Shown one piece after another: positions 7,542 through 30,700 of a stretch of 40,403 nt of DNA. Source of the DNA: Eubacteriales bacterium (GTDB lineage: Bacteria > Bacillota > Clostridia > Oscillospirales > CAG-272). The notes under the pieces were generated by a model. The model did no database searches. It was not told where the DNA came from and was given only the letters and a program-made list of their open reading frames with translations. The stretch covers positions 1 to 40,403 of the forward strand of contig JBJDZF010000378.1 in NCBI GenBank assembly GCA_051867855.1. The letters run 5' to 3'. Every line of letters begins with the position of its first letter. Positions within the stretch are counted from its first letter, which is position 1. Position numbers and translations under genes: made by a program.

Positions 7542-9046
7542 TTTTCTTTTAAGTATCGTTTAGTATCGCTATTCGCCGCGTTGTAATCGTCCCACATATC
7601 ATCCGTCCATGCCGTTTTCGCTTTTTCTGGCTCCTTGTACACGGATTTTTGCTGTCCCTCAATTGCAAGCGCAATTGCAAGCGCCATGATGCAGTCGTCA
7701 TGTGCCCCCTCCTGCGCTTCAGGCCGGAATTCTTCGTTGCGTACAAAAGTAAGCATTTCTTCGAGCGTAGTTCTGTCGTTGATCGTATCGTCGTTTGCTT
7801 TAACATGATTGATAAGGCGGGCTATTATTGTGTTGCGTGTGAGCTTATCCGTTAGAAATCCGTACTGGTCGACTGTTTTGTGTGTATATCGATCAATCGA
7901 CTGCCGCACATACAGCTTCGGATATCCGAGCCGCGCAAGCTCGTTTACCGGATATGTGGAAAAATTTATCTCAATGCCGATGAGCGCGGTATTGTAGTAT
8001 TTCCCTAGGCAGTACATCTGATTGCAGTACTCTTTTTCCCCGGTTGTCATCTTGAGGACTGCGCATTGTTCTTTTGTTTTGTTATTAAGCACCTGGCCTA
8101 CAAATCGGTCCGATCCGTTTCCGGCAATGTCTCCGCCAATGACAAATGGTACATTTGCATCCGGCTCTTTGTAAATATAGATAAGCTGGTTTCTCTCATC
8201 CTCAATCCATGTGATATCATAGATACAGTCTGATCCCTCTCGATACGCAAAATATCCGGCTTTTACCGGATTCGGTATCTTTTGGAGCCTCTCGGAAACG
8301 ATAACCGCAGGAAAAACGGTTTTTCCGGTTACGCCCCATTCGCCAAGGCAGTATACCGTGTAGTAATATTCATCGGTTTCCCGGAACGCTTCCAGTGTCT
8401 GGATCGCCTCATCCGGAAGGAATGGATTATCCTTATAATTGCTTCGGCTCGTCGTTGCGCGCCGGTCTTGCTTATCGTAAAAACGCGCTTTAAGCCAATG
8501 TGTTACCGATACCGGATTAAACGTCAAAATGATTTGCTTATAGTACGGTGTTTCATCTCTTAGTCTGATATCGAGCTGGTTAAAATCGTATTCGGTAATT
8601 TCAGATGCTTCCTCTATCCAGATCATTGTGATTCCGCGGATTGATTTCAGTTTTTCGACATTATCAAGGCCGGAAAAAACAATTTCCGAACCGTTTTGTA
8701 AAACGATTCGCATAGGAGATGATGTCATGCGCTTGATTTTATCGGGATAGTATGTTTCTGCCTGCTCTTTGAGCTGGGAAAAGCATGATAAGCTGATGCT
8801 TTTCTCTGTTTTTCGCACGACTAAAACACGGTGTCCTTTTTCTGTCGCGCAGCGCTCAAGCAATTTTCTTCCTGCGAAAACGGATTTACCGGAGCCGCCG
8901 CCGCCCATCAGGACAAGATAACGGGATTGATTAAAAAGCAGATCGCGAAAAACCGGTACATTTGTATCACACCACGATTTCCACCAGGATACAAGCTCTT
9001 TTTCCGTCTCTTTTTTGATTTTTTTCGATTTATAGGCAGTTTTCAT
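7520..9046 (-). CDS. terL: Terminase large subunit (PBSX-like family)
   Basis: 508 aa. Walker A in YLVLMGGGGSGKS, Walker B-like MIWIEEASE, C-terminal nuclease-type acidic motifs. ATGA overlap with terS. Confidence 0.9.
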   Translation of the reverse strand: MKTAYKSKKIKKETEKELVSWWKSWCDTNVPVFRDLLFNQSRYLVLMGGGGSGKSVFAGRKLLERCATEKGHRVLVVRKTEKSISLSCFSQLKEQAETYYPDKIKRMTSSPMRIVLQNGSEIVFSGLDNVEKLKSIRGITMIWIEEASEITEYDFNQLDIRLRDETPYYKQIILTFNPVSVTHWLKARFYDKQDRRATTSRSNYKDNPFLPDEAIQTLEAFRETDEYYYTVYCLGEWGVTGKTVFPAVIVSERLQKIPNPVKAGYFAYREGSDCIYDITWIEDERNQLIYIYKEPDANVPFVIGGDIAGNGSDRFVGQVLNNKTKEQCAVLKMTTGEKEYCNQMYCLGKYYNTALIGIEINFSTYPVNELARLGYPKLYVRQSIDRYTHKTVDQYGFLTDKLTRNTIIARLINHVKANDDTINDRTTLEEMLTFVRNEEFRPEAQEGAHDDCIMALAIALAIEGQQKSVYKEPEKAKTAWTDDMWDDYNAANSDTKRYLKEKWGTPKT

Positions 9047-9621
9047 TTTTCCCCGCCATTTTGTAAATCTTCCGCATCTTCCGTTCCCGATGACGCGTCA
9101 TCAGCTCCGGACACATCCATCGCGCCGTAAGCTTTTGCTATTTCTTTAAGCAGCTCCAGTTTTTCAAGCGCAGGAATGTTTCCCGTTTCCGTCCGGCTTT
9201 CGTTTCCGGAATCGTTTCTTAATTTTTCTCGATCCGAGTACCCGAAATTATTTTCGAGGCTGAAAATGATCCCCTTGCAGTCTCTCCCCATCAGCACAAG
9301 TTGCTGTGTAAGGTACGATTCCACGCGCATACGCGCTATCTCGATCACATCCTTGTATCCCTCTCGCTGTGCGTACATGCTCCACGTCTGCCGGCTGATA
9401 CCGAGATAGCACTGCAGCGATGTGATCGACGGCGGAACGGCATATTTGATGATCGGTATCGGTTTTCCGTCGTTTCCGATGATCTCATCCCCCGGCACAT
9501 ATTTCCCTGATACCCATGTATCTGGTCGGCGTGCGTTTTCTGTGTATGTGATGCCGTCAAAATATCGATCTACTGCGTCAGAAAAATCCTTGCTTGATCG
9601 ATATTTTATGAATCTTCCCAC
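9043..9621 (-). CDS. terS: Terminase small subunit
   Basis: 192 aa, GTG start (the track shows M) with GAGAGGGGG upstream. PPSITSLQCYLGISRQTWSMY HTH and GIIFSLENNFGYSD motif are typical of Firmicutes terS. Lies immediately upstream of terL. Confidence 0.75.
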   Translation of the reverse strand: MGRFIKYRSSKDFSDAVDRYFDGITYTENARRPDTWVSGKYVPGDEIIGNDGKPIPIIKYAVPPSITSLQCYLGISRQTWSMYAQREGYKDVIEIARMRVESYLTQQLVLMGRDCKGIIFSLENNFGYSDREKLRNDSGNESRTETGNIPALEKLELLKEIAKAYGAMDVSGADDASSGTEDAEDLQNGGEK

Positions 9622-9665: not shown

Positions 9666-9674
9666 ATTATATCA
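9666..9674 (-). promoter_or_regulatory. Extended -10 element (TGATATAAT) without a recognisable -35, upstream of terS
   Basis: Plus strand reads attatatca. The sequence 17 nt upstream (GAGTAG) is unlike TTGACA. About 45 nt upstream of the terS GTG. Candidate activator-dependent late promoter. Confidence 0.35.
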
Positions 9675-9815
9675 TAAAAATAAGTCCGCTACTCGCAAGT
9701 TTTATGACATGCTTACTTATATATAATATACCTTTTATCTCTGGAAGCTGATGCGCCAAAGGAGGAGCCGATGCGCCGAGTATCTGACATCCGGGGCCGT
9801 CGCACTATCGCGCCG

Positions 9816-9888
9816 CATCTTCCGGATTCTTCCGGCTTCTTCCGGCATCTTCCGGCATCTTCAGGCATCTTCCGGCAGGCATCTTCCG
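9816..9888. repeat. Phased 10-bp tandem repeat, CATCTTCCGG x6 contiguous plus 1 after a 3-bp gap
   Basis: catcttccgg attcttccgg cttcttccgg catcttccgg catcttcagg catcttccgg cag gcatcttccg. The unit is not a multiple of 3. Intergenic, upstream of terS. Confidence 0.9.
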
Positions 9889-9950
9889 TTTTGATCCTGA
9901 TATTGATCCTTTAATCAAGTACGTAATCCGTGTTTTTGTTGCTCATCTCT

Positions 9951-9990
9951 TTTGCAAACAAAAAGCGGACAGCCATATCAGCTATCCGCT
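9951..9990 (-). terminator. Minus-strand intrinsic terminator upstream of the late operon
   Basis: Stem 9964-9973 / 9981-9990 (9 of 10 bp), 7-nt loop. On the minus strand it is followed by UUUUGUUUGC. Confidence 0.6.
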
Positions 9991-10088
9991 CATGAATCAA
10001 TTTCTTTCTATTTCGCGCCCGCGCACCCGCGCGCGTGTGATCGTGTCAATTTTTTCAAAATTTTTTTATTTTTTTTTTGCAAAACCCC

Positions 10089-10117
10089 TTGACAAAACAC
10101 GCAATGCGTGGTATAAT
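10089..10117 (+). promoter_or_regulatory. Perfect sigma-A consensus promoter P1 for the rightward early operon
   Basis: TTGACA (10089-10094), 17-nt spacer, TGgTATAAT (10109-10117). Confidence 0.85.
10098..10110. promoter_or_regulatory. Palindromic candidate operator inside the P1 spacer
   Basis: CACGCA-A-TGCGTG, a perfect 6-1-6 inverted repeat. The TGCGTG half-site recurs just upstream of the -10 of the 21003 promoter. Confidence 0.3.
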
Positions 10118-10125
10118 ATATACGT

Positions 10126-10189
10126 AAAGAAAAAAAAGAACAAAAAAGTCCGGCACACCCCCAAGCTACCAACTTTAAGTGTGACGGAC
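10126..10189 (-). terminator. Orientation-specific minus-strand intrinsic terminator inside the P1 leader
   Basis: Stem 10179-10189 / 10148-10158 (10 of 11 bp), 20-nt loop. On the minus strand it is followed by UUUUUUGUUCUUUUUUUUC (A-tract 10126-10147 on plus). There is no U-tract in the plus orientation. Confidence 0.6.
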
Positions 10190-10220
10190 GCAGCCAAAAC
10201 CGACAAGCGCCGATCTTGTA
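10140..10220 (-). ncRNA. Candidate ~80-nt RNA antisense to the early-operon leader (ends approximate)
   Basis: Bounded by the perfect promoter at 10227-10255 (minus) and the terminator at 10126-10189. Contains no ATG or SD. Confidence 0.4.
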
Positions 10221-10226
10221 TTTATT

Positions 10227-10255
10227 ATTATATCACATCTTCCGACGTTTGTCAA
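10227..10255 (-). promoter_or_regulatory. Perfect sigma-A consensus promoter firing leftward toward terS
   Basis: Minus strand reads TTGACA (10250-10255), 17-nt spacer, TGaTATAAT (10227-10235). Convergent with P1. Confidence 0.8.
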
Positions 10256-10276
10256 TAAAAGAAAGGATTAAAAATC

Positions 10277-10642
10277 ATGACAAACGCGCAAATCATCTTT
10301 AATGCATCAGTCGATCTGATGGAAAAAGGCATCCTATCCGGAACCGGACGTTTCCTTGATGTCAATTATGAAGACGGAACTGTCGGGAAAATCGAAATTC
10401 CGGAAGATATCCACACTTTTGCAGGATGGAAATCGCTTGGATACTGCGTGAAGAAAGGACAAAAGGCAATCGCGCAGATTGAAATCTGGAAGCACACGAC
10501 AAAGTTTCTTGATGAAAATGTTCAGGACGAAAACACAGCCGCTGCAAACCGGGAAATCAACGAACAGGGCGGAATCCAGAAAATGTTTATGAAAAAAGCA
10601 TTTTTCTTTAAGTCTTCGCAGGTTGAACCGTTGAAAGGTTGA
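10277..10642 (+). CDS. ArdC-N-like (DUF1738-type) ssDNA-binding domain protein; first early gene
   Basis: 121 aa, AAAGGA SD. HTFAGWKSLGYCVKKGQKAIAQIEIWK resembles the TF.QW..LG..V.KGEKG motif of the ArdC N-terminal domain. No metalloprotease half. CDS confidence is high, function moderate. Confidence 0.55.
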   Translation: MTNAQIIFNASVDLMEKGILSGTGRFLDVNYEDGTVGKIEIPEDIHTFAGWKSLGYCVKKGQKAIAQIEIWKHTTKFLDENVQDENTAAANREINEQGGIQKMFMKKAFFFKSSQVEPLKG

Positions 10643-10653
10643 GGTGATCACGA

Positions 10654-10830
10654 ATGACACAAAAGGTTGATCAGGCTTTCGAAAATCTCTATTACGGATC
10701 AGATGACGACGCAGATAAACGAATCATTTGTGAAGCGTTTGGACTTTTACAAGAGTTCTTGAAATGCAATCCTGAAGACGAGAATCACATCTTAAATCTC
10801 GCTGTAGGACGATACTTCGGAATTTATTAA
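10654..10830 (+). CDS. Hypothetical 58-aa protein (below the ORF-track cutoff)
   Basis: GAGGTGA SD at 10641-10647. Own translation MTQKVDQAFENLYYGSDDDADKRIICEAFGLLQEFLKCNPEDENHILNLAVGRYFGIY, stop TAA 10828-10830. Confidence 0.55.
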   Translation: MTQKVDQAFENLYYGSDDDADKRIICEAFGLLQEFLKCNPEDENHILNLAVGRYFGIY

Positions 10831-10878
10831 ATCAAATAAAACAGTGTCCGATAACAAGTCCGGAGAAAGGAAATTATC

Positions 10879-11154
10879 ATGGAAACAATTAAAGTGAAAA
10901 TCGATGGAAAAGTTTATGAGCTTATCAAATGCACAGGGTATTACCCTTCCATCTGCGAAGACGAATCCTGCAGACGCGATCTGTATTATTTGGCGGAAAA
11001 ACTCGATAACGGAGAAGTTTACGAAGCTTTGTTGTCGGACAATTTCGAAGACGGTGAAGAATATGAATGGGAATTACTCAATGAGCCTTCCACTTACTGT
11101 GATGATATTGCAACCATTGAAGTCGACGGTAAAATCGGCGGACAGTACAATTAA
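10879..11154 (+). CDS. Hypothetical acidic 91-aa protein
   Basis: ORF track. GAAAGGAAA SD, packed within the operon. Confidence 0.6.
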   Translation: METIKVKIDGKVYELIKCTGYYPSICEDESCRRDLYYLAEKLDNGEVYEALLSDNFEDGEEYEWELLNEPSTYCDDIATIEVDGKIGGQYN

Positions 11155-11178
11155 GTAATGCTCAACAGGTAGTAAGCC

Positions 11179-12264
11179 ATGATCAGAGTGTGCAAACGAT
11201 GCGGAAAGAAATTTGATCCTGCATCGAGTGATACCTACTACTGCGACGAGTGCAGACTTGAAATCAAGCGCGAAAGCGTATTAAAAATCGCAAAATGCTC
11301 CGAGTGTGGAATTGAATTTATCGGGGGAATAGCTTCTAAATATTGCCCTGATTGTCGATGCAATAAAGCGAATGAGGCCAGCGCAAAATCAAAGAAAAAT
11401 AAAAATAGGCGCAAAATCGGTAGTTTAGATTACTGTAAAAGATGCAGCGCGGAATATACCGTAAAAAGCGGCAAACAAAAATATTACTCTGAATGCGCCG
11501 AAATAGTGCTTGCAGAACATAATCGCGAAGTTAGCAAGCGTAAGTATCACGAAAACAATCTTTACGAAAAGCAGGCAGAGCAAAAGAAAGCGCTAAAGCA
11601 GGATTCGACTATTTGCCCAGCTTGCGGTAAACCGTTCACGCCGAACAGAAATAATCAGATGTACTGCTCTTCTGAATGCCGAAAGATAGGCGGGAAGAAG
11701 AACAGGCCTATCGAGAAAAGCGGGATCTATGCAAAAAAAACAGATTCCAAACGATATGCAGAGCCTAAATCGAACAACAAAACCGGTATACGCGGCGTAT
11801 ACTGGGACAACCGACTTAGCCGCTATGTGGTTAAAATAAAAATCGGAGACCAATTCAAGCGGCTCGGCTCATTCAAAAGCTTAGAAGATGCGCAGGAAGC
11901 GATAACAAAAGCGAAAGCCGACCGGCCACAAGTCCGGAGAAAGGAAATAGAAATGGAAAAAGTAATTTACACATGGTACAATTTTATGAACGGCGCAAGA
12001 GTAAGCGCATGCACGTTAAATCATAATCCAAAAAATAAGATCGATCATACCTGCGAATGCGGGCTGAAAATCACAATTTCGGTTCCTGACGGGTATCATT
12101 TAACCGAAAACGATTACGGCGACGCCATTTTGGTAAAGGATGACGAAACTAAAGGAATACTCCTGCAGTATAACAACGACTTGAATCGGATCGAAGAAGG
12201 CGGTTATACTGTTACCGGTAACCCGATTAAAGGCGTAAGAATCATTAGCAAAGAAGAATTTTGA
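11179..12264 (+). CDS. DNA-binding protein: four tandem zinc ribbons plus an AP2-type domain
   Basis: 361 aa. Four CxxC-x(11-15)-CxxC units (CKRCGKKF...YYCDEC; CSECGIEF...YCPDC; CKRCSAEY...YYSEC; CPACGKPF...MYCSSEC). Then TGIRGVYWDNRLSRYVVKIKIGDQFKRLGSFKSLEDAQEA, an AP2/HNH-associated three-strand DNA-binding motif. Confidence 0.7.
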   Translation: MIRVCKRCGKKFDPASSDTYYCDECRLEIKRESVLKIAKCSECGIEFIGGIASKYCPDCRCNKANEASAKSKKNKNRRKIGSLDYCKRCSAEYTVKSGKQKYYSECAEIVLAEHNREVSKRKYHENNLYEKQAEQKKALKQDSTICPACGKPFTPNRNNQMYCSSECRKIGGKKNRPIEKSGIYAKKTDSKRYAEPKSNNKTGIRGVYWDNRLSRYVVKIKIGDQFKRLGSFKSLEDAQEAITKAKADRPQVRRKEIEMEKVIYTWYNFMNGARVSACTLNHNPKNKIDHTCECGLKITISVPDGYHLTENDYGDAILVKDDETKGILLQYNNDLNRIEEGGYTVTGNPIKGVRIISKEEF

Positions 12265-12269
12265 TTGGG

Positions 12270-12398
12270 AAAAAGAAAGAAGGCAGCAAAGCTGCCTTCT
12301 TCTCCGATTCCTAATGAAATCGCAAATATTTCAATCCGCGCGGGAAATCAAAAGGAAATCCCATGACCGTAATCAAGGATGACACTTCATCCAGTTAC
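12270..12398 (-). ncRNA. Candidate ~125-nt intergenic RNA (ends approximate)
   Basis: Lies between the near-consensus minus promoter 12405-12433 and the hairpin 12278-12300, which has its better U-tract (UUCUUUUUCC) on the minus strand. Only SD-less micro-ORFs inside. Confidence 0.3.
12278..12300. terminator. Bidirectional hairpin terminator after the zinc-ribbon/AP2 gene
   Basis: AGAAGGCAGC-aaa-GCTGCCTTCT, 10-bp perfect stem. U-rich flanks on both strands, stronger on minus. Confidence 0.6.
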
Positions 12399-12407
12399 GA
12401 ATATATT
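12379..12407 (+). promoter_or_regulatory. Probable promoter of the 12445 HTH gene
   Basis: ATGACA (12379-12384), 17 nt, TATATT (12402-12407). Its -10 overlaps the -10 of the opposing promoter. Confidence 0.4.
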
Positions 12408-12433
12408 ATATCATACAATTTCAGGTTTATCAA
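12405..12433 (-). promoter_or_regulatory. Near-consensus leftward promoter
   Basis: Minus strand reads TTGATA (12428-12433), 17 nt, TGaTATAAT (12405-12413). Confidence 0.6.
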
Positions 12434-12444
12434 GGAGGAATCTT

Positions 12445-12672
12445 ATGTTTCCCAAAAGTCAATCCAAAACGTTCGTTTGTAGAGCTCGGTCGATCCGGAT
12501 ATCGTCCGGAATGACGCAGAAGCAGTTTTCCGATTATTTCGGTATCCCATGTCGTACTATTCAGGACTGGGAATATTCCCGTCGAAAATGCCCGGAATAC
12601 ATTCTTGACTTGATGGAATACAAGCTCTTAAACGAAGGTATCATACAGAAAGCAGAAAACAGGGACGTATAA
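12445..12672 (+). CDS. Small HTH transcriptional regulator (XRE-like)
   Basis: Real start is ATG 12445 behind an AAGGAGGA SD (the track ORF starts earlier). SGMTQKQFSDYFGIPCRTIQDWEYSRRKCPEYILDLMEYKL is a common phage/antitoxin-type HTH pattern. Confidence 0.75.
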   Translation: MFPKSQSKTFVCRARSIRISSGMTQKQFSDYFGIPCRTIQDWEYSRRKCPEYILDLMEYKLLNEGIIQKAENRDV

Positions 12673-12689: not shown

Positions 12690-13022
12690 TCAGATCAGTC
12701 CGCGCGCCACCGCGTATAACCTTCTTGCCCGTTTCAGCATCCGCCACACGGACGATTCCGACCATCCCTTTTCATATGCATATCTCCTGACGCGTGACGC
12801 TATGATTTTCCCGTTGATTTTTTCGTTGACGCCGCTCATGTATATTGCTGTCACCGCATTTTCCTCCTCATCCGTCATAGATGATAGCGCAATTGTGACG
12901 GCTTCCTCATCGGCGCGCAGAATCTCGGATTTTTCCTGGTTTGCCTTTAATCGCGCGTATTCCCGATAGGCGGATATCGCCATATCCATATATTTTTCCC
13001 GTCTTATAATCTCCACCCCCAT
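12690..13022 (-). CDS. Small sigma-70 region-4-like / phage transcription regulator
   Basis: 110 aa. C-terminal EKGWSESSVWRMLKRARRLYAVARGL resembles a region-4 HTH. Last gene of the early operon. Confidence 0.4.
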   Translation of the reverse strand: MGVEIIRREKYMDMAISAYREYARLKANQEKSEILRADEEAVTIALSSMTDEEENAVTAIYMSGVNEKINGKIIASRVRRYAYEKGWSESSVWRMLKRARRLYAVARGLI

Positions 13023-13510: not shown

Positions 13511-14377
13511 TTATCCCTGTTCCGGCAAAAGCTCGTCCCACGGGTATTGATCGCCGTATGTCCCGGATTGATATGTAACGGTCGTTGACCACGGCGCAAC
13601 GGCGGCATTGCTTTTCAGCAGCCGCATATGCATGTAGTAACTGTGATCGTATGGATTATAGACGCAGCTCCACCCGTCACACAGCTTGTACCCCGGAAAA
13701 AGGTTCTGCATTTCCTGCCGCGTCAAATTGTTTTCGTAAAAATCCCGGCAGTTTTTTTTCGTGAAAACGCGTGAAAGTGCGCGTGCCTGTCTGTCATCCT
13801 CCGGCAGAGGCTCAGGCCGTTCCAGATTCTGCGAAGTCACAAACGTCTTTTCATACGCTTCACGCTCCTCTTTTTTCGCATAATAACATGCAAGATCGGT
13901 ATACCCGTTCTCCGTGTACTCAAGATAGGCCGCATAGTTCCGTTTCGAATTTTTCCATGCGCGGATCAGTGCTTCCTTTTCTACGCCGCCGGAAACGATC
14001 ATATGATGATGCACGCGCCCGGATTCCTCTCCTCGTTCGGTGCAGTAAATGTATTTGAGTTCCTTCCCCGCCTTCTGATACAGGCGTTTGATTCTCCGTA
14101 TGTAGTTCGTCATTTGTCTTTTCGCGTCCTGCATATCATCCGGATAATTCCCGTTTTCATAATCCAGCTCGAGCATAACGGATCGGCTGTCAAAGTTAAG
14201 ATTTACAAGCCGTGTGACATACCGCTTGCGCCTCATGATATTTACTTTTTCCTGATTTTCACGTGTAACACCCCAAACAATCCGCTTCCCGCGTCTGGTT
14301 TTCCGGTGCGCGTATACATCGATCTCAACCATACCCGGCATATCATATACAATTGCTTTTTCTCTCTCCTGCGTCAT
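13511..14377 (-). CDS. HUH-superfamily rolling-circle replication initiator-like protein
   Basis: 288 aa. Motif II GRVHHHMIVSG (HHH at 14003-14011), motif III LACYYAKK (u-x-x-Y-u-x-K), motif I-like SVMLELDY. Adjacent to ssb. Confidence 0.6.
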   Translation of the reverse strand: MTQEREKAIVYDMPGMVEIDVYAHRKTRRGKRIVWGVTRENQEKVNIMRRKRYVTRLVNLNFDSRSVMLELDYENGNYPDDMQDAKRQMTNYIRRIKRLYQKAGKELKYIYCTERGEESGRVHHHMIVSGGVEKEALIRAWKNSKRNYAAYLEYTENGYTDLACYYAKKEEREAYEKTFVTSQNLERPEPLPEDDRQARALSRVFTKKNCRDFYENNLTRQEMQNLFPGYKLCDGWSCVYNPYDHSYYMHMRLLKSNAAVAPWSTTVTYQSGTYGDQYPWDELLPEQG

Positions 14378-21002: not shown

Positions 21003-21031
21003 TTGACACACTGTTTTTTGCGTGCTATAAT
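21003..21031 (+). promoter_or_regulatory. Perfect consensus promoter P2
   Basis: TTGACA (21003-21008), 17 nt, TGcTATAAT (21023-21031). Confidence 0.85.
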
Positions 21032-21049
21032 AAATTATGGGTGATAATT

Positions 21050-21493
21050 ATGAAAACCAAAATTTTTGTTTGCATTTTGATTTTTGTTGGAATTTGTACA
21101 TTTGCTGTTATTGCGCCAAACTATAAAGATGTACAGAATACTGGTGCTGTTGTTTCTGTTGATTCAAAACCGATTGCAATAAATCATGAAACCGAAGAAA
21201 ATCATGATTCCGAATTGCAGTTGGTTTCTATTACAGATCCGATATCTCCCGGAAAAGTTGCTGCTTTGATATTAAAAGGGAAACCGAATACGGATTATTA
21301 CCTTGTTGTGATCTATCAAAAAGAATCAAAGGCAAGTGGTCTCGGATTGGCCACATCAGATAGCACCGGTATGGTTAAATGGTATTGGAAGGTTGGAACA
21401 AGAACATATACAGGTGAAAAAGATATAAAGGTTTACTATGGTAATAGCAAAAAAGGAAAACCAATTTTCGAAATGAAATTCACTGTAAAATGA
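21050..21493 (+). CDS. Secreted or membrane-anchored small protein (147 aa), moron-like
   Basis: The real start is the internal Met at 21050, downstream of P2. The 299-aa track ORF spans the promoter. MKTKIFVCILIFVGICTFAVIAP signal/anchor, beta-rich C-terminal domain. AT-rich. Confidence 0.7.
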   Translation: MKTKIFVCILIFVGICTFAVIAPNYKDVQNTGAVVSVDSKPIAINHETEENHDSELQLVSITDPISPGKVAALILKGKPNTDYYLVVIYQKESKASGLGLATSDSTGMVKWYWKVGTRTYTGEKDIKVYYGNSKKGKPIFEMKFTVK

Positions 21494-21551
21494 TTTCAAG
21501 TTTAGTTTTGCAAGCACATTTTACGAATTTCTTATGTACTTGTTCGTACTA

Positions 21552-21580
21552 ATTATATCACATTAATTGTACTATGTCAA
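21552..21580 (-). promoter_or_regulatory. Perfect consensus leftward promoter, back-to-back with the repressor promoter
   Basis: Minus strand reads TTGACA (21575-21580), 17 nt, TGaTATAAT (21552-21560). Confidence 0.8.
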
Positions 21581-21625
21581 CCACTTTTATAAATTTATTT
21601 TTTATTTTTTGTACTCACAATTCCA

Positions 21626-21654
21626 TTGACAGCCGAAGATTTTTATGATATAAT
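21626..21654 (+). promoter_or_regulatory. Perfect consensus promoter P3 of the XRE repressor gene
   Basis: TTGACA (21626-21631), 17 nt, TGaTATAAT (21646-21654). Confidence 0.85.
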
Positions 21655-21680
21655 ATGTTTTGAAGTAAGGAGGTGGTTAT

Positions 21681-22076
21681 ATGGGCATCGAAGAAAGGAT
21701 CAAGAAAGTTCGTAAAGATAACGGATTGAATCAAACTGAATTCGGGAAGTCTCTCGGGGTAAGCAGAAATGTCATCAAAACATACGAGCTTTCTCTTGTC
21801 AAGCCGTCTGAAATTTTCATCGATCATCTTTGCGTTGTATACGGTATAAATCCGGAATGGCTCGAAACCGGACAAGGAAGCATGCACGCCGATATATCGC
21901 GCGAAGAACAGATTGCGCGATTCGTAGGAGAAGCGATGAAGGAGGAAGGATCGTTCAAACATGCATTGATAACCCTTTTATCCGAGCTGGATGAAGACGG
22001 ATGGAAGAAGCTGGACGAGGCCGCACATGCTCTGCTCGATGCGCAGGAGCAGATCAGGAAAAGCAGCGATCCTTAA
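21681..22076 (+). CDS. XRE-family (CI-like) repressor, no peptidase domain
   Basis: 131 aa. IKKVRKDNGLNQTEFGKSLGVSRNVIKTYE...GINPEWLETGQG is a canonical HTH_3 with the WL.TG tail. AAGGAGG SD. Confidence 0.85.
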   Translation: MGIEERIKKVRKDNGLNQTEFGKSLGVSRNVIKTYELSLVKPSEIFIDHLCVVYGINPEWLETGQGSMHADISREEQIARFVGEAMKEEGSFKHALITLLSELDEDGWKKLDEAAHALLDAQEQIRKSSDP

Positions 22077-22089
22077 TTCTTCCGAAGGC

Positions 22090-22134
22090 AAAAAAAAAGA
22101 AACGATGGAATAAAAACCATCGTTTCTTTTTTTG
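22090..22134. terminator. Strong bidirectional terminator
   Basis: 12-bp perfect stem AAGAAACGATGG/CCATCGTTTCTT (22097-22108 / 22117-22128), with an A-run before and a T-run after. Confidence 0.8.
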
Positions 22135-22142
22135 TCATTTCT

Positions 22143-22274
22143 CTATTGCCATGCTTTCAGAATCGTATGAATCCGAACAATCTCTGTATAGCTTGATCTT
22201 CGGATCATGTCCATGATTTCAATCAGCATCTGCAATCGTTTCATTTCTTCCCCCTCATTCTTTTTTCCGCCCAT
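22143..22274 (-). CDS. 43-aa peptide with its own perfect promoter (below the track cutoff)
   Basis: AGGAGGA SD 7 nt before ATG 22274. Own translation MGGKKNEGEEMKRLQMLIEIMDMIRRSSYTEIVRIHTILKAWQ, stop TAG 22143-22145. Confidence 0.6.
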   Translation of the reverse strand: MGGKKNEGEEMKRLQMLIEIMDMIRRSSYTEIVRIHTILKAWQ

Positions 22275-22319
22275 CTGTTTTTCCTCCTATGTTTAAGAAC
22301 GTTTGTTCTTTTTTCTAAT

Positions 22320-22348
22320 ATTATACCATAGGAAAACGGTTTTGTCAA
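22320..22348 (-). promoter_or_regulatory. Perfect consensus promoter P4
   Basis: Minus strand reads TTGACA (22343-22348), 17 nt, TGgTATAAT (22320-22328). The -35 overlaps the stop of the upstream ORF. Confidence 0.85.
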
Positions 22349-22809
22349 CGCATATTTTGCTTTAAGTTTCTGATTCTGTTTTCAAGCTCCTGATTTTCTT
22401 CTTCAAGTACAGCGATTTCGATTTCTTTTTCTTTGCATCTTTTCTTCAGTTCGAATATGTATGTACTGACGATTTTTGCGTTTTCAATGCCGCTGCTTTG
22501 GATTTCAAGGTCGATGCTGCAGTGATCTTCCTGAAGCTTCTTGATTTCGTTTTCCTTCATGATTTCCCTGACACGGTCATGTACGGAATTTATCGTCCGA
22601 TTCATTTCTATTCCGTGTCTTTCGATCATGGATTTCTTTTCCTTTTCGTGCTCTTTTGCTTCTCTGATTTTCTCAAAATATAAATCTTCGTTTTCCTTTT
22701 TCAGTTTCAGCACCTCTTCTCTTTTATCGAAATAAAGCACGAAGAAAACGACAGCTGTTATAATGAGTATAATGATTACCGAATACATGAATCCAACCAA
22801 CTCTGACAT
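22345..22809 (-). CDS. N-terminally anchored coiled-coil membrane protein (154 aa)
   Basis: Start at ATG 22809 (AAAGGAG SD). TM helix FMYSVIIILIITAVVFFVLYF, then a Lys/Glu-rich heptad-like sequence. Very AT-rich. Confidence 0.7.
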   Translation of the reverse strand: MSELVGFMYSVIIILIITAVVFFVLYFDKREEVLKLKKENEDLYFEKIREAKEHEKEKKSMIERHGIEMNRTINSVHDRVREIMKENEIKKLQEDHCSIDLEIQSSGIENAKIVSTYIFELKKRCKEKEIEIAVLEEENQELENRIRNLKQNMR

Positions 22810-22830
22810 GATATCACTCCTTTCACTACT

Positions 22831-22859
22831 ATTATACATCATTTTTTATTGTTTTTCAA
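22831..22859 (-). promoter_or_regulatory. Near-consensus promoter
   Basis: Minus strand reads TTGAAA (22854-22859), 17 nt, TATAAT (22831-22836). Confidence 0.7.
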
Positions 22860-22867
22860 TTATTCTG

Positions 22868-22896
22868 TTGATTTTTGTTCCGGATTATGATATAAT
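22868..22896 (+). promoter_or_regulatory. Near-consensus promoter, back-to-back with 22831-22859
   Basis: TTGATT (22868-22873), 17 nt, TGaTATAAT (22888-22896). Confidence 0.75.
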
Positions 22897-22920
22897 TCAA
22901 TATAAAAGAGGTGTATTGAA

Positions 22921-23430
22921 ATGATTGAAGAAATGGATTTTTCCGATTTTGTTATTACGATCTGTTATGCTTGTCAGGTAGCCTCATTGATCTGTATCTA
23001 TAGATACTACGATTACAGAGAAATCAATGAATATTATCATATGAAAGCAAGAAATAAGGTAACGCACAGCTTCTTGAAAAACCTTTTTGCGATTTATTTC
23101 ATCCAACACCTGATAGGATTTATATTATATTTCATTGCTTATTGGTATATTTTCACCGATTTCATTATCATGATACCGCTTGGCTTAATGTGCTTTACAA
23201 TTTCCGTATTGCTTCGCTTGATGAACAAAAAAAAGAATTTCGGTTTTGGATTATCTCTCATTTTATTTTTTATCTTATTTTTGCCTATGTCATATCTCTC
23301 GCTTCGGTATTGCGATAAGTTCACGGATTATTGTACAGAATCCTTTTATTCATGTTTTTGTTTATATATTTTACCAATGTATGGGGTTTTATTTATCGAT
23401 TATAATACATATCTTGATAAAACCGAATAA
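22921..23430 (+). CDS. Polytopic membrane protein (about 5 TM helices, 169 aa)
   Basis: AAGAGGTG SD. Aromatic/Cys-rich hydrophobic segments. Very AT-rich. No recognisable family. Confidence 0.75.
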   Translation: MIEEMDFSDFVITICYACQVASLICIYRYYDYREINEYYHMKARNKVTHSFLKNLFAIYFIQHLIGFILYFIAYWYIFTDFIIMIPLGLMCFTISVLLRLMNKKKNFGFGLSLILFFILFLPMSYLSLRYCDKFTDYCTESFYSCFCLYILPMYGVLFIDYNTYLDKTE

Positions 23431-23645: not shown

Positions 23646-24310
23646 TTTCCGAAGATCCACATCTTCCGTTTCTTTTTTTCCGGCTCCTTGGTTTCCGCGG
23701 CTTCTATCCGCATGATATCGTTTGCGTGTAAGGCCTGTGCGCCCTTCGTGCTGTCCATTGCATCTGACAGCGCCTGCGTCAGGTTTGCATTCTGTGATAG
23801 CAATGATTTGATCTGCTCGTCTTTTTCCTCAATCTGCCGTTTCAGAAACGCGCACGTTCCGCGAAGCTCTTCCTCCGAAACCGACAGGATCCGTATTGTT
23901 TCGGTTGCAGCCGAAAGTTTCAGCTTCATCGCTTCGGTTTCACGCTCCATTTCCGCCATGAAACCTGAAATTCCTCGGTTTCCGCTGACAACTTTTTCAC
24001 CTTCGGTTTCACCTGTTTTTTCTTCTTCTGACAACCCGGAAAAAGTTTCCCCCGTTCCGGTTTCAGAATTGGCCCCGTCATATCCGGTTTTTTCGGTTTC
24101 ATCTATGGTTTCAGTGGAAACCGGTTTCACCTCTTTTTTTCTCTTTTTTTCATCGTTTTCCGAAACCAATATTTTCTCCGCTTCTTCTGTCAGGTAGATG
24201 GTCTTATCCTCCGCCGTGAAAAAGGTTTCACGCGGAAGTTTCAGCACGCGCTTATAAAGCGCCTGTCTGGATATCCCCATTTCACCCGCAAGCTGCCGTA
24301 TCGTTTTCAT
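23642..24310 (-). CDS. HTH protein translationally coupled to rep (plasmid replication-associated, DUF536-like arrangement)
   Basis: 222 aa. MKTIRQLAGEMGISRQALYKRVLKLP HTH, acidic Thr/Glu-rich linker, C-terminal coiled coil. ATGA overlap with rep. Confidence 0.55.
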   Translation of the reverse strand: MKTIRQLAGEMGISRQALYKRVLKLPRETFFTAEDKTIYLTEEAEKILVSENDEKKRKKEVKPVSTETIDETEKTGYDGANSETGTGETFSGLSEEEKTGETEGEKVVSGNRGISGFMAEMERETEAMKLKLSAATETIRILSVSEEELRGTCAFLKRQIEEKDEQIKSLLSQNANLTQALSDAMDSTKGAQALHANDIMRIEAAETKEPEKKKRKMWIFGK

Positions 24311-25368
24311 CTTTTCCCGCCTCCGCTCCCGTCAGATGCAAGCATCTTGCAGAAATACCTGTACCGGCTTGTATGTACATCCCTCGTCTGCATCTCATCG
24401 TATTTCCGCTTGAGATAATGATATCGGCATATGTCCGGATCGTCAAACCGTGTTCCGACCGTATCGTCAGGAACTGCTTTCACAAGGTCATAGAGATACC
24501 GCATTTCGCTTTCATCAAACTCTCTGTCGCAGGCGTCCGCTAAAAACTCAAGCGTTTCGTCCTCGTAGGTATGCGCGACCTCCTCGAATTCCGTGATATC
24601 GACGCATCCGTCCCCGTCCGTTTTCTGCATATCCATATACGCACGCAGAGACAGCGGATCGGAAAATGCATCGTTTTTCATGATCCGGAATACGACCGCC
24701 GTGACGCGTCCTCCGCGCCCGTGCTTTTCAAGCGTATAGGTATACCTGATATCCGTGTTTTCCGCAAGCGCCGTCTGGCATGCGTCCAATACGCACGCTT
24801 TGAACCGGTCGAATCGGTCATAGGTTCCCGGCTCGATTCCGAGCAGAGACCGTATTTCCGGCAGCGTGAAGCGCCGCTCACCAAGTTTTTCATACTGCTT
24901 CAGAATTTCATACATGCGCAGCTGGTTTTTCGATTCAAGCCGGAGTGCGTTCCACAGCTCGTAGCGGAAATATTCTCGTTTGAACCGGAACAGAAGCGGC
25001 ATAGCGTCCTCATGCGCGCGGAATGTGATATACCAGCCGTCCGGCCGATGCTCGCACCGGCAGCGGTCGAACAGATGGAACTGCTCATACCCGCCGTCGC
25101 TTGTATCAACCGTTATAAGGCGTGAGACAAGCCTTGCGGTTGTTTCCTTAAGCTGTGCTAAATTGATCTTTTTCAGCTCCATAATGCGCTGAAAATCGGC
25201 AAGCGCGAATTCCTGCGACCGCGTTTCCTCATCCATGATATTGATTTTTGACAGGTAAATCGAGAAGAAGCGAAGCTCCTGCAGCGTCATCTTCGTTTCT
25301 CTGACTTCGTTCAGCACATTTCGCTTGGTCACAATCGCGTGTTCGCGTATTGTTTTCATAAAGCCCAT
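24307..25368 (-). CDS. rep: Rep_3-family (RepB-type) iteron-binding theta replication initiator
   Basis: IVTKRNVLNEVRETKMTLQELRFFSIYLSKI, YELWNALRLESKNQLRMYEILKQY, FTLPEIRSLLGI..YDRFDRFKACVLDACQTALAENTDIRYTY and GRGGRVTAVVFRI follow the Rep_3 pattern. Start is ATG 25368 or 25359, because the track start 25395 lies inside the promoter. Confidence 0.8.
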   Translation of the reverse strand: MGFMKTIREHAIVTKRNVLNEVRETKMTLQELRFFSIYLSKINIMDEETRSQEFALADFQRIMELKKINLAQLKETTARLVSRLITVDTSDGGYEQFHLFDRCRCEHRPDGWYITFRAHEDAMPLLFRFKREYFRYELWNALRLESKNQLRMYEILKQYEKLGERRFTLPEIRSLLGIEPGTYDRFDRFKACVLDACQTALAENTDIRYTYTLEKHGRGGRVTAVVFRIMKNDAFSDPLSLRAYMDMQKTDGDGCVDITEFEEVAHTYEDETLEFLADACDREFDESEMRYLYDLVKAVPDDTVGTRFDDPDICRYHYLKRKYDEMQTRDVHTSRYRYFCKMLASDGSGGGKR

Positions 25369-25383
25369 CACCTCACCTCTCTG

Positions 25384-25412
25384 ATTATACCACATTTCAA
25401 CACCTTTGTCAA
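25384..25412 (-). promoter_or_regulatory. Perfect consensus rep promoter
   Basis: Minus strand reads TTGACA (25407-25412), 17 nt, TGgTATAAT (25384-25392). Lies between the iterons and rep. Confidence 0.85.
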
Positions 25413-27213: not shown

Positions 27214-27528
27214 TTATTTGTAATCTGTCAGAATCGGAAGAACCTCACACCCCTCCCATGCCTGCTGCAGCTTCTTGATTCCTCTTGCCTTATGTTTTGC
27301 GACATAATCCCGTCTGTATCCGAGCGCCTCCGCCGCTTCCTCCTCCGTCATACCATCAATGATCACGCATCTGATGCATGTTTCCTCGGACTTTGACAGA
27401 GACACATATGTAAACGCGAAATCAAGCACGCGTTTATACGGCGTTTTCAGTGCCCGCACGACCGTTTCACGGGGCAGCACGCTGTCGCCTCCTCCCGTAT
27501 TTCCGTATCCGTTCGTTTTGTACGGCAA
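27214..27528 (-). CDS. Sigma-70 region-4-like small regulator
   Basis: 104 aa. EETCIRCVIIDGMTEEEAAEALGYRRDYVAKHKARGIKKLQQAW is region-4/LuxR-type. The start is uncertain because the track ORF overlaps the upstream gene by 62 nt. Confidence 0.5.
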   Translation of the reverse strand: MPYKTNGYGNTGGGDSVLPRETVVRALKTPYKRVLDFAFTYVSLSKSEETCIRCVIIDGMTEEEAAEALGYRRDYVAKHKARGIKKLQQAWEGCEVLPILTDYK

Positions 27529-27792: not shown

Positions 27793-30700
27793 TCAGATTC
27801 CTATCTTTTTCAGTCCTATGCTTCCTATCCCGATGCTCGGAACGGAGAAGGAACTTTTCGATATCTTCTGCGCCTTGTATGGATTTGACGACTGACTGCC
27901 GCCCGTTGCGATCCATAGCGCGCTTGCCTGTCCCTTTCCGAGCAGCAGACGATTGATTGCGCTTTCCCGCTCCTCGTTTGATATATAGCCGTCCTGGTTT
28001 GTATCGGCGTTATTGAGCACCCATAGATAGATATCTACGTCAACACCTGCGTCGATTGCTGTATGATACCTCTCATATGCGCCGTCCGTAAGAACGGTTT
28101 TTATGGCGGTATCCAGTGTCTTCCCGGAAAGCGTCGTTTCCCATATCGCGGCGATCTTATCCGCGCTCGATTTCGCTCCCATCAGCGCATCGGTCACGGC
28201 AACGGCTGATTGTGCGTCAAGCCCGTTTGCGATGAGTTTCTTATACGTTTTCGGGTCGACTGTAAAACCTGTCGCAAACGGGAACGTATCTCCGATCTGC
28301 ATGATTCTGTCATCGCTGTATCCCATCTCCGAAAGCCATGCAAGGAACCGCGTTGACCGCTGCGCCGCCGTAATGCTGTCGTCTGCGTTCAGTCTAGCGT
28401 TTTCCGATCTGATTTTCAGAAATTCCTTGTAAGTCATGCCGTAACCGAGTATCGCGTTCACTTTGTCATCGTCGGTATAACCGATGAAGTTTCCGTCGTC
28501 ATCTGTTTCCTTGGTTGCGATCATGCCCTCGTAGACAGCCCGCATTGCGTCTGCATCCATATCGGTTGCAAGCAACAGATCTATTTTTTCAAAATTCCTG
28601 TCCGCCTCCCGTATATTCCGGACGGTATTGACCGCCTCCGCATAATCAGCTCCAGCCTCGACAGCGCTGTCGACTGTATTTTTCTGTCTGTCCGTAGCGA
28701 CGTATTCATAATAAAGCTCTGCTTTTTGCTCATCATCAAGCTCCGTTAATCCGTCTATGTACGCGGCCTGTGCAATGGCTAGCGTTTCGTTTTCTCTTTT
28801 CTCCACATCCGAAATACCGACCGCGATCTCGTATGCCGTTGACGGCTTAACTCCCGCATCCGTCAGTGCCTGATAGGCTTCCGTCTGCTTTTTTTTCAGC
28901 GTATCGAAATTCTGATTGACCCATTTCTGCTGTGAAAGCGTTCCGGACTTACCGAACAGCAGCGCACGGACGGTATCTGCTCCCGTCACGGTGTATTTCA
29001 GCTGTCCCTGCTTATAACCGTCCGTATAGTCTCCCGCCTGAAGAATAGAAAGCACGCCGTTCAGTGTCTTTCGTAACTGATTGCCTCCGGTCACAGTAAC
29101 GGACATAATGTCAAGCGCCTGCTGCATCAGATGGTAGAAAAGCTGCGCTTCCTCGTCCTTCTGTGCCGCCTCGATCTGGGCAATCATCTCCGGATCAGTC
29201 TCTTTCCTTTTATCCTTGGCAAGAGAATCGATTGCCGAAATATCGCCTCCTGCTTTTATCGCGTTAGAAACGCTCGGAAGGTTCACGGGAAGTCTTGAAT
29301 CTACGTCAGCTCCGAATGCACGTGCTGCGGCTAAAATGGAAGAACCGAACGGTACATCGTCGATAAATTCCGATACGGTTTTCCCATACGATTTTGCGCC
29401 TGCTACGATCGCTTCCAGAAGTGTCATGTCGTTTTCCTCGTCCTCATCACGGTCTCGGACGAACTTCTTGATGACGTTTACTAAGATTCCGTTCAGAACG
29501 CCGGATGCTCCCGTTATGAAATTGCCGAACAGAAGGCCTAAGATATCGAACATGGAGACCGTTCCGAGACCGAGCGCCGAAAAAATGTTGTTTGCAATCC
29601 ATGCGGCTGCCGCCTGACTTGCCGCAAACTTTGCAATCGTTTCCGCGGCCGCTTTCTTCCCTTTCGTCTGTTCGATCCGCTTCCACTCCTCCGGAAGCGT
29701 TTTCGAGATATTCTCCCACTGTGCAAGCGTTTCACGCTGGAACAGCGTCATAAGCTGTATGATAACGTTTTTCGACCGGAAAACAAGAGGTGATGCGCCG
29801 CGCAGTCTGGATGCAAGAATCGATCGTGCCTTGCTGTCTGCATACCGCATTGCTTCCGCTTCGTTCATTCCGTTATCGATTCCCTGCTGAAAGAATGAAT
29901 AGACAGCGAATTTTGACATGAAGATATCCGTCTGTTCCCATGTTTTTTCCGCAAGGTCGACCGCTATGTCTGCGGCTTTTACAATCCGCTCTGACCCTGA
30001 CGCCGCAATGTCCTTTTCGTAAGTTGTGCGCTGCATTTTCGTTTTCTCTGCAAGAAACGTCGACTTTTCAGAAATCCGATACCGCTGCTCCAGATCGTTG
30101 TTCGGATTGAATACAAGCATAGGCGCCGAAAACGCATGCTTTCCCGTTTCCGCTATGACATTCGGAATCTGGGAAAGCTGCCGGAGCGAGGATGCAACAT
30201 TGAACGTCATCATGGTACGGTTCGACCACCTGATCAGTGCGCCTGCCTTTCGCAGTGTGGTTCTCCCGATTGTGTTTTCCTGATCGCGTGACAGAATCTG
30301 CTTTCCGGCGAGATCGTCGGTGTAATTCTTCAGCCATGTGACAAGAGGACCGTAATCCTGTGATGCTTCCCTTAACTGTCTGTCCTTTTCGTTAATGGAT
30401 ATTGCATCCTCTCCCGTATCCGTCAGATCATCCAGCATATCCGCGCGTCTGTCCTGTGATGCTTTATCGAATTTGTCTCGGATATAGCTTTCAAGAGTTC
30501 GCAGCTTCATGATATCGTCGATATGGTATATGGCTTCGTTTGCCGCGTACAGATACCGCTCCATATTGGCGGCAGCATCATATACGGTTTCCGTTCCCAT
30601 TCTGCGCTGTGCAAAGGAAAGCCATTTTCTAAACGGTCTGAAATCAGCCGTCAAACCCGCAATGGACGCCGGAAGGTCAGTCACTTCGTCAAATCCTGCC

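Follow-up and report, generated by a model that had tools for sequence, protein, structure and literature searches.

A 655-bp divergent stretch separates the small terminase gene terS (start at 9621, minus strand) from a plus-strand early operon in contig JBJDZF010000378.1, and within the leader of this operon a consensus promoter points back at the promoter of the operon itself. The question raised by this locus is what the leftward promoter, here designated Pleft, is for. The sequence analyzed (the window) was the whole 40,403-bp contig, the content of which is that of a tailed-phage genome. The first-pass annotation of this DNA had proposed either (i) a short RNA antisense to the early leader accompanied by head-on interference with the early promoter, P1, or (ii) a late switch like that of lambda PR'/tR'. 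All of the sequence features that it claimed for the region were found to be present. Reading (i) fitted all of the computed evidence, which included invariant Pleft hexamers, a minus-strand-specific RNA structure, proximity to the pT181 family in Rfam and a second unit of the same design, and reading (ii) failed on those features that are open to computation. The best explanation of the locus, with a probability of about 0.6, is that a cis-antisense RNA represses the early operon, the production of the RNA, the repression and its mechanism being predicted from sequence. The RNA probably acts together with a small helix-turn-helix (HTH) repressor.

Facing promoters and the predicted antisense RNA

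Both P1 (10089..10117, plus strand) and Pleft (10227..10255, minus strand) read TTGACA-17-TATAAT with a TG dinucleotide and match the consensus of sigma-70-type promoters with an extended -10 at 12 of 12 positions. The perfect leftward promoter that had been claimed inside the early leader was thus found again at 10255-10227 (12/12 with TG). Transcription was predicted to start at about 10122-10124 from P1 and at about 10220 from Pleft, so that the two starts (about 10124 and about 10220) face each other at a distance of 96 bp. Perfect TTGACA-N14-TG-N-TATAAT sites were found seven times in the window, whereas base composition predicts 0.0004 and 200 shuffles yielded none, indicating that these sites are under selection and are not chance matches.

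Relatives with the same layout were reached via homologs of terS (63-78% identity) and of the first gene of the early operon (gene 1). The same divergent layout was found in seven distinct genomes, namely the window and the loci designated L050/51, L052, L053, L074, L076 and L085-87; L073 and L075 were partial relatives. Identity between the window and each relative was 79-86% for Pleft, 78-88% for the antisense RNA segment and 94-97% for P1, with 73-84% for the coding DNA of gene 1, 61-70% for that of terS and 5-33% for a repeat region upstream of terS. Viral-contig loci fetched by gene 1 or terL (L001-L049) were not syntenic and did not contain the antisense cassette, and two more distant loci with a gene 1 homolog (L088 and L089) had neither P1 nor the cassette.

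In six aligned relatives, both hexamers of Pleft, its TG and an AACG beside its -35 were invariant and the rest of the spacer was variable, which is the pattern expected of a working promoter. The P1 spacer, unlike that of Pleft, was nearly invariant in the relatives and holds the palindrome CACGCAaTGCGTG. Phased A/T tracts (10040..10088, plus strand) that were 78-84% conserved lie upstream of P1. They resemble an UP element or bent DNA and may function as such; similar tracts also accompany P1-type promoters in unrelated phages. From the positions of P1 and of the ATG at 10277, the 5' leader of the early mRNA was placed at 10124..10276 (plus strand, 153 nucleotides), and it is within this leader that the antisense cassette lies.

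The transcript predicted from Pleft is an antisense small RNA of about 75-90 nucleotides (10135..10220, minus strand) with its 3' end within a U tract at 10147-10130. Folding of the minus-strand RNA from 10220 to the U tract gave two hairpins with a combined energy of -31.7 kcal/mol (z = -3.7). The 5' hairpin, hairpin 1 (10195..10218, minus strand), is located at 10218-10195 upstream of the terminator hairpin and is an addition to the features listed earlier. Its 10 bp include three invariant G.U pairs, and because it depends on these pairs hairpin 1 folds on the minus strand only (-11.7 kcal/mol, versus -2.4 kcal/mol on the plus strand). Hairpin 2 (10189-10148), with arms GTCCGTCACAC...GTGTGCCGGAC in which 10 of 11 bp are paired, is followed by U6GUUCU8 (10147-10130), and together they form terminator 1 (10130..10189, minus strand; -20 kcal/mol). 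The claim that this terminator exists only on the minus strand was confirmed, since the hairpin is not followed by a U run on the plus strand, and no plus-strand terminator was detected in the early leader.

All 25 pairs of the two hairpins were kept in a six-genome alignment (150 of 150 pair cells), and the U tract of terminator 1 was conserved in the relatives. One compensatory change, from A-U to U-A, was found in the terminator stem of L053. Three other variable pairs switch solely between A-U and G.U, an A-to-G change in L053 adding a G.U pair to hairpin 1, and four further pairs are invariant G.U. Read on the opposite strand, 29 of these 150 cells would turn into C.A mismatches.

Several other identities for the segment were considered and rejected. 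A small peptide encoded within the RNA was ruled out, because there is no AUG and the relatives differ from one another by insertions or deletions of 1-2 nucleotides, so that the segment is not coding. A type I toxin-antitoxin module was rejected as the downstream genes do not encode small hydrophobic peptides, and a transfer RNA (tRNA) or a phi29-type packaging RNA was rejected as ARAGORN found no tRNA and there was no Rfam match. A 21-nucleotide pattern taken from the small RNA had no match in viral contigs and only chance matches in unrelated bacterial genomes. A covariance model of the small RNA found no copy outside the clade in about 540 kb of compared sequence, the match in L034 being merely a terminator.

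A second antisense unit (12276..12433, minus strand) was identified inside the early operon. Its promoter (12433-12405; 11/12 with TG) lies just upstream of the ribosome-binding site of the HTH gene, its terminator (12302-12276) exists on the minus strand only, and its product of about 130 nucleotides was predicted to be highly structured (z = -4.8). That one operon contains the design twice speaks for antisense control as a recurrent feature of it.

The five perfect promoters other than P1 and Pleft are located at 21003-21031 (plus strand), 21552-21580 (minus), 21626-21654 (plus), 22320-22348 (minus) and 25384-25412 (minus), each scoring 12/12 with TG. Most of them precede genes, including those for an XRE regulator and a replication protein, which indicates an early programme read by host sigma-A. 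The promoter at 21580 (minus strand) aims into the 3' end of gene 21050-21493, which is itself driven by the convergent promoter at 21003, and the two may constitute another antisense pair. Nearby, the XRE repressor-like gene (21681-22076) and an open reading frame (ORF) of 43 amino acids converge on a bidirectional terminator at 22092-22133.

Proposed mode of action

The palindrome in the P1 spacer (10098..10110) is unique in the window and was nearly invariant in the relatives, with a single substitution each in L052 and L076. The last early-strand gene (12445..12672, plus strand) encodes an XRE-type HTH protein of 75 amino acids, with weak HTH_3 and XRE-type matches, that is proposed to be the P1 repressor. 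Its true start is the ATG at 12445, which has a good ribosome-binding site, and the gene lies 2.3 kb downstream of P1 in the window and about 1 kb downstream in the relative L052. P1 together with its palindrome was found exactly in 19 additional public loci with unrelated gut-phage surroundings, and in near-identical form in Streptococcus phage PH15 (window 10089-10117; L054-L072; L083, which is PH15, 1530-1558; palindrome CACGCA(A/T)TGCGTG). Homologs of the HTH protein were detected by tblastn in 10 of the 20 loci fetched for the P1-type promoter, versus 1 of 49 other loci. In seven of these ten (L054, L056, L058, L062, L069, L072 and PH15) the HTH gene is downstream of the P1-type promoter on the same strand, at a distance of 0.6-1.1 kb except in L072 (about 3.3 kb), and in the other three (L065, L067 and L071) the closest P1-type promoter comes shortly after the HTH gene. 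In 9 loci other than the window, the HTH homolog and a P1-type promoter share the same strand. This co-occurrence suggests that the palindrome is probably the operator of the 75-amino-acid HTH family and that the protein would exert negative feedback on P1. The palindrome and the HTH protein may represent an undescribed operator-repressor pair common to Firmicutes phages.

The genes that follow the P1-type promoter differ among these phages and the leaders there are only about 25-60 nucleotides long, from which it was concluded that the antisense cassette is a clade-specific insertion. In L057, a P1-type promoter sequence at about 9485-9507 lies between direct repeats of a unit of about 28 nucleotides (cttttccccgcataggcgggggtgatcc), and this copy looks like a CRISPR spacer targeting a phage with this promoter.

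Three short, related segments of the leader offer a possible route from antisense binding to silencing. Box 1 (GACAAGCG; 10202..10209, plus strand) lies inside the antisense target and was predicted to pair with Box 2 in constrained as well as unconstrained folds; the Box 1 variants of the relatives, GACAGACG and GACAAACG, can still form this pairing. Box 2 (CGUUUGUCA; 10246..10254, plus strand), which is the complement of the Pleft -35 and of the invariant AACG and is itself invariant in the relatives, was predicted to have either Box 1 or Box 3 as its partner. Box 3 (UGACAAACG; 10278..10286, plus strand), placed by folding, overlaps the start codon of gene 1. When the antisense target was blocked, the probability of Box 2:Box 3 pairing reached 0.95 or more in each of the five genomes with this gene in first position.

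In the proposed model, the cassette would be a plasmid-style countertranscript unit placed between P1, a strong early promoter, and gene 1 of the operon, and Pleft would produce a structured, terminated RNA of about 80 nucleotides fully complementary to nucleotides 18-97 (approximately) of the leader. Upon infection, host RNA polymerase would start at P1, and transcription from P1, which is proposed to be the stronger promoter because of its A/T tracts, would cross Pleft and dampen it. As the 75-amino-acid HTH protein builds up, it would occupy the palindrome in the P1 spacer and turn P1 off. Pleft would then be freed from convergent transcription while the number of templates rises with replication, so that the antisense RNA would accumulate and pair with the remaining early leaders. 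Pairing would silence these leaders via cleavage of the duplex, via sequestration of Box 1 that releases Box 2 onto the start codon, or via both. Terminator 1 would halt the antisense RNA just short of P1, and a second terminator further left, terminator 2, would catch any read-through, so that a very strong Pleft would not leak into terS. The Box 2:Box 3 hairpin, modeled by folding, is put forward as the specific silencing mechanism with less confidence than antisense repression as such, and duplex-directed cleavage and the collision of converging polymerases are equally possible contributors.

A number of observations weigh against repression by a cis-antisense RNA or against this route to it. 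Covariation was weak, with a single double change that 80 of 500 shuffles equaled or exceeded; the weakness reflects the shallowness of the clade, in which only seven closely related genomes have the cassette, and the case for an RNA structure therefore rests mainly on strand asymmetry. Conservation of the cassette could stem in part from constraints on the plus-strand leader. In the free leader the two pairings of Box 2 compete, and the probability of Box 1:Box 2 pairing varied widely across the six genomes (0.26, 1.0, 0.54, 0.78, 1.0 and 0.0). The proposed Box 2:Box 3 hairpin would mask the AUG, with the Shine-Dalgarno sequence remaining in the loop, and the RNA itself stays clear of the ribosome-binding site, its target ending 57 nucleotides upstream of the AUG. 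In L050/L051 a different small ORF follows the cassette; this unrelated ORF, of 64 amino acids (1011-1205), is inserted ahead of the ArdC-like gene. Furthermore, the leader has no plus-strand terminator, so that the pT181 mechanism itself is not applicable, and the similarity to pT181 RNAI described below scores far below the family threshold and was not significant for L053 (z = 1.6).

Alternative explanations, the late side and the phage genome

Among the alternatives, the one that survives best is pure transcriptional interference, in which Pleft would act by collision of its polymerases with those from P1 and the RNA itself would have no function. Convergent-promoter interference is established in phage 186 and in other systems, and in this locus the starts of two promoters of maximal strength face each other at 96 bp. 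However, leftward polymerases are halted at terminator 1 ahead of P1, limiting any effect on that promoter, and hairpin 1 with its strand-specific G.U pairs has been conserved although it is not needed for termination. Interference as the sole function was considered unlikely.

A somewhat less probable alternative is a small RNA that acts in trans on host transcripts, on those of other phages or on host defence, its antisense position being incidental. A stable structure, a strong promoter and a location at the head of an anti-restriction-type operon are what such an RNA might have. Its complementarity elsewhere in the phage nowhere exceeded 11 nucleotides, which is the chance level, and the perfect complementarity to 80 nucleotides of the leader makes an effect in cis almost unavoidable if both RNAs are present. 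A primarily trans-acting role was accordingly regarded as quite improbable.

The lambda-like reading has to be weighed against the organization of the late side. Terminator 2 (9953..9991, minus strand) is an intrinsic terminator predicted to insulate the late promoter, and consists of a 13-bp stem (9991-9963) and a T run, the stem being followed by TTTTGTTTG; this agrees with the second minus-strand terminator reported earlier. Each relative has a hairpin and a T run at this site with a differing stem sequence, that of L053 being entirely different, indicating that what is conserved is the terminator function toward terS. Further left, 45 nucleotides upstream of the start of terS, there is a promoter-like element (9666..9698, minus strand) that is unique in the window and consists of TTGCGA, 21 nucleotides and TATAAT with a TG-extended -10; its activity is predicted. 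The -35-less extended -10 that had been noted before terS is the TGaTATAAT at 9674-9666 within this element. TTGCGA.TAG and TGATATAAT were invariant in eight genomes, and the non-canonical spacing of 21 nucleotides suggests an activator or a phage-encoded sigma-like factor. Two small proteins resembling sigma region 4 are encoded at 27214-27528, as found by searches, and at 12690-13022, as judged by inspection only.

In a lambda PR'/tR'-like switch, Pleft would constitutively give a short terminated RNA, and a phage antiterminator loaded at Pleft would allow polymerase to read through terminators 1 and 2 into the late operon. A strong promoter followed by two terminators on the same strand and then by the late genes is the expected arrangement, and the two sigma-region-4-like proteins are conceivable regulators. 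Against this, the late genes are preceded by an invariant promoter-like element of their own, situated beyond terminator 2, and the Pleft spacer, where a Q-binding site would be expected, is variable apart from AACG and TG. Searches that covered 30 ORFs with Pfam, 40 with PHROGs and 8 with NCBIfam, out of about 48 plausible ones, found no domain of the Q family or of any other antiterminator, although an antiterminator of an unknown family would escape them. The -10-like repeat that had been suggested to act as a sigma-dependent pause in the first transcribed bases could not be upheld: TATAATAATAAAT is the -10 hexamer plus the discriminator and is not transcribed, and the base that creates the repeat is specific to the window and lies upstream of the predicted start. 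A search of +1 to +25 (AUACAAGAUCGGCGCUUGUCGGUUU) for a -10-like pause with A2 and T6 found only TACAAG, which has no T6. In addition, read-through would meet P1, the strongest promoter of the region, head-on, and the conserved RNA structure exceeds that of a bare terminator. With its own terS element, and with no pause element and no Q-like gene found in these searches, the locus does not support the lambda PR'/tR' reading, which is very unlikely.

Two further elements lie between terS and P1. The 10-bp repeats noted earlier upstream of terS were found as an array (9811..9889; CCGGAAGATG on the minus strand) for which Tandem Repeats Finder (TRF) reported 6.3 copies at 9815-9877, and the unit matched 16 times in the window versus 2.8 expected. 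The repeat region is variable in the relatives, where scattered ATGCCGGAA-like motifs occur, and is absent from L053; the array is a candidate packaging site, set of iterons or set of regulator sites. An additional copy matching at 9 of 10 positions is located in the Pleft spacer (10236-10245), and the idea that it is an operator was unsupported because the spacer is not conserved in the relatives. A GC-rich box (CGCGCCCGCGCACCCGCGCGCG; 10008..10039), 80-88% identical between the window and each relative, separates the A/T tract from terminator 2 and is a possible origin or packaging signal; L073 has an expanded version of it with palindromic units.

These elements lend themselves to an equally improbable explanation, in which the RNA or read-through transcription would activate or prime a replication origin made up of the A/T tract, the GC box and the repeats. 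T7, lambda and ColE1 have origins that depend on a promoter, terminator 1 is immediately followed by the conserved A/T tract and GC box, the repeat array is present, and the phage encodes a rolling-circle-type Rep and the single-stranded DNA-binding protein SSB. Against this, a strong terminator ends the RNA ahead of the A/T tract, this tract is explained as an upstream element of P1 and is seen with P1-type promoters of unrelated phages, the repeats are absent from L053 and no nick-site motif was identified.

The phage genome in which the cassette resides encodes a gp3-type small terminase, a large terminase, a P22-type portal, a major head protein, an internal virion protein, an endolysin, SSB and rolling-circle-type Rep proteins, the Rep genes (13511-14377 and 24307-25395) being located outside the early operon. 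Minus-strand genes form the majority; the short operon 10277-12672 is the largest block on the plus strand, which also has a few single genes around 21050-23430. The operon comprises genes for an ArdC-N-like protein, two small ORFs, an HNH-like protein and the small HTH protein. Gene 1 (10277..10642, plus strand; 121 amino acids) resembles the ArdC N-terminal domain, with a Pfam ArdcN match at the cut-off (E = 1.2e-4) and a PHROG anti-restriction match (E = 1.4e-4), and its homologs bear PF08401. The product of terS (9043..9621, minus strand), the first late gene, matched the gp3-type small terminase family PF16677 (E = 1.4e-13) and is identical to an NCBI protein annotated as 'terminase small subunit'. 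DNA similarity to cultured phages and plasmids was limited to promoter-like stretches, so that no relative was found among cultured phages; a tblastn search with the portal detected distant uncultured relatives only, and no terminal redundancy of the contig was found.

Other observations were made on the phage and its relatives. An ORF of 2452 amino acids in the window (27793-35151, minus strand) has no PHROG match, adjoins the homolog of the internal virion protein and possibly encodes a giant ejection or internal protein. In L074 there is a TAG at codon 5 of the ArdC-like gene (about 520-535) despite an intact regulatory cassette. Near-threshold matches to self-cleaving ribozymes were found between genes, on the sense strand, in the early operons of relatives (L051 425-489, L053 390-454, L052 1862-1914, and 1-31 of both L051 and L074, all on the minus strand) and none in the window. 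The scores were 34.4-34.6 bits for Hammerhead_II (threshold 37) and 35.1 bits for Twister-P5 (threshold 37.6), and the twister match of L052 lies just upstream of the HTH gene.

Comparison with known antisense and switch systems

At standard thresholds no Rfam family was reached. At relaxed thresholds the best match was ctRNA_pT181 (RF00242), on the predicted strand and over the full model, with 29.4 bits compared with a gathering threshold of 56 (E = 0.02-0.08 for the region and about 5 in a 22.7-kb search of relatives); L051 scored 28 bits and authentic pT181 RNAI 105.6 bits. Alignments of the RNAs of the window and of L051 with pT181 RNAI were better than those of all 2000 dinucleotide shuffles (z = 4.0-4.7), although the U tract is lost in such shuffles, which inflates the z values. 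By Rfam's criterion the phage RNA falls outside the family, and homology to pT181 RNAI is possible but unproven.

The likeness to pT181 RNAI extends to the first nine nucleotides (AUACAAGAU), to the stem and loop of hairpin 2, to a length of about 80-95 nucleotides with two stem-loops of which the second is an intrinsic terminator, and to the direction of transcription, which runs backward from inside the 5' leader of the target and ends at the sense promoter. As in pT181, the RNA predicted from the transcription starts lies wholly within the leader 10124-10276, to which it is complementary, and the alternative pairings predicted for the leader depend on whether the target is free or blocked, in parallel with the pre-emptor logic of pT181 (PMC5703833). 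On the other hand, the sequence of hairpin 1 is unrelated, and the target in the phage is an early ArdC-like operon, whereas pT181 RNAI controls repC. The pT181 mechanism depends on a terminator that antisense binding induces ahead of the start codon (PMC5703833). An attenuator of this type was rejected, as no plus-strand hairpin followed by a U run was found in 10124-10277 and a weak ACAAG/CUUGU stem was not conserved.

In mode of action, RNAI of pSK41, from the staphylococcal RepA_N plasmids, offers a parallel. It is an antisense RNA of about 83 nucleotides with two stem-loops that binds the leader about 100 nucleotides upstream of the translation start, and the proposal is that a stem-loop induced by this binding prevents translation from starting (PMC5703833). 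The predicted pairing of Box 2 with Box 3 embodies the same idea; the phage hairpin covers the AUG and not the Shine-Dalgarno sequence, and the setting is a phage with a non-replication target and not a plasmid. The pairing with an HTH repressor is paralleled in pIP501, in which CopR represses the sense promoter and thereby relieves convergent transcription and raises the output of the antisense RNAIII, which acts on the leader (PMC5703833). The phage locus likewise has a small XRE-type HTH protein, a palindrome in the P1 spacer that it is predicted to bind, and a convergent antisense promoter. In contrast to the phage arrangement, RNAIII works by attenuation and copR is transcribed independently of repR, whereas the phage HTH gene lies on the early strand downstream of P1.

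A far-reaching and rather doubtful interpretation is that the cassette is an evolutionary relative of the pT181-family countertranscripts that was captured by a tailed gut phage and re-purposed, together with an XRE-type repressor and its operator, as a gene-dosage timer that shuts the anti-restriction early operon during replication, and that the P1 operator and the HTH protein form a widespread undescribed early regulon of Firmicutes phages, including PH15. If the main model of antisense repression is correct, an immediate-early operon of anti-restriction type would be governed by the copy-control logic of Gram-positive plasmids, with a countertranscript and an HTH repressor, and the antisense RNA would be a simple timer tied to genome dosage. 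A link of this sort between the regulatory toolkits of plasmids and phages is not well documented. The parts, which are two consensus promoters, one operator, an 80-nucleotide RNA and two terminators, could be reused in synthetic circuits for Clostridia-type hosts, and the association of the P1 palindrome with one HTH family in unrelated gut and streptococcal phages may prove the broader finding.

Short antisense RNAs and facing promoters are also part of phage regulation. The P22 sar RNA overlaps the ribosome-binding site of ant and the lambda OOP RNA overlaps the 3' end of cII, whereas the target proposed here is a 5' leader segment well upstream of the ribosome-binding site. Both sar and OOP are short cis-antisense RNAs made from constitutive promoters that limit an early function (PMC5415839). 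They act in temperate-phage decision circuits, and their Rfam families did not match the locus even at E <= 10. The unit formed by lambda PR', 6S RNA and tR' is similar in that a strong promoter gives a short terminated transcript upstream of packaging genes, but in the phage no pause and no Q-like gene were found by the searches described, the locus has no conserved spacer element, it has a late promoter-like element of its own, and its transcript is antisense to the early leader. The locus also differs from the pR/pL pair of phage 186, since terminator 1 stops leftward transcription and only the transcription from P1 crosses the opposing promoter.

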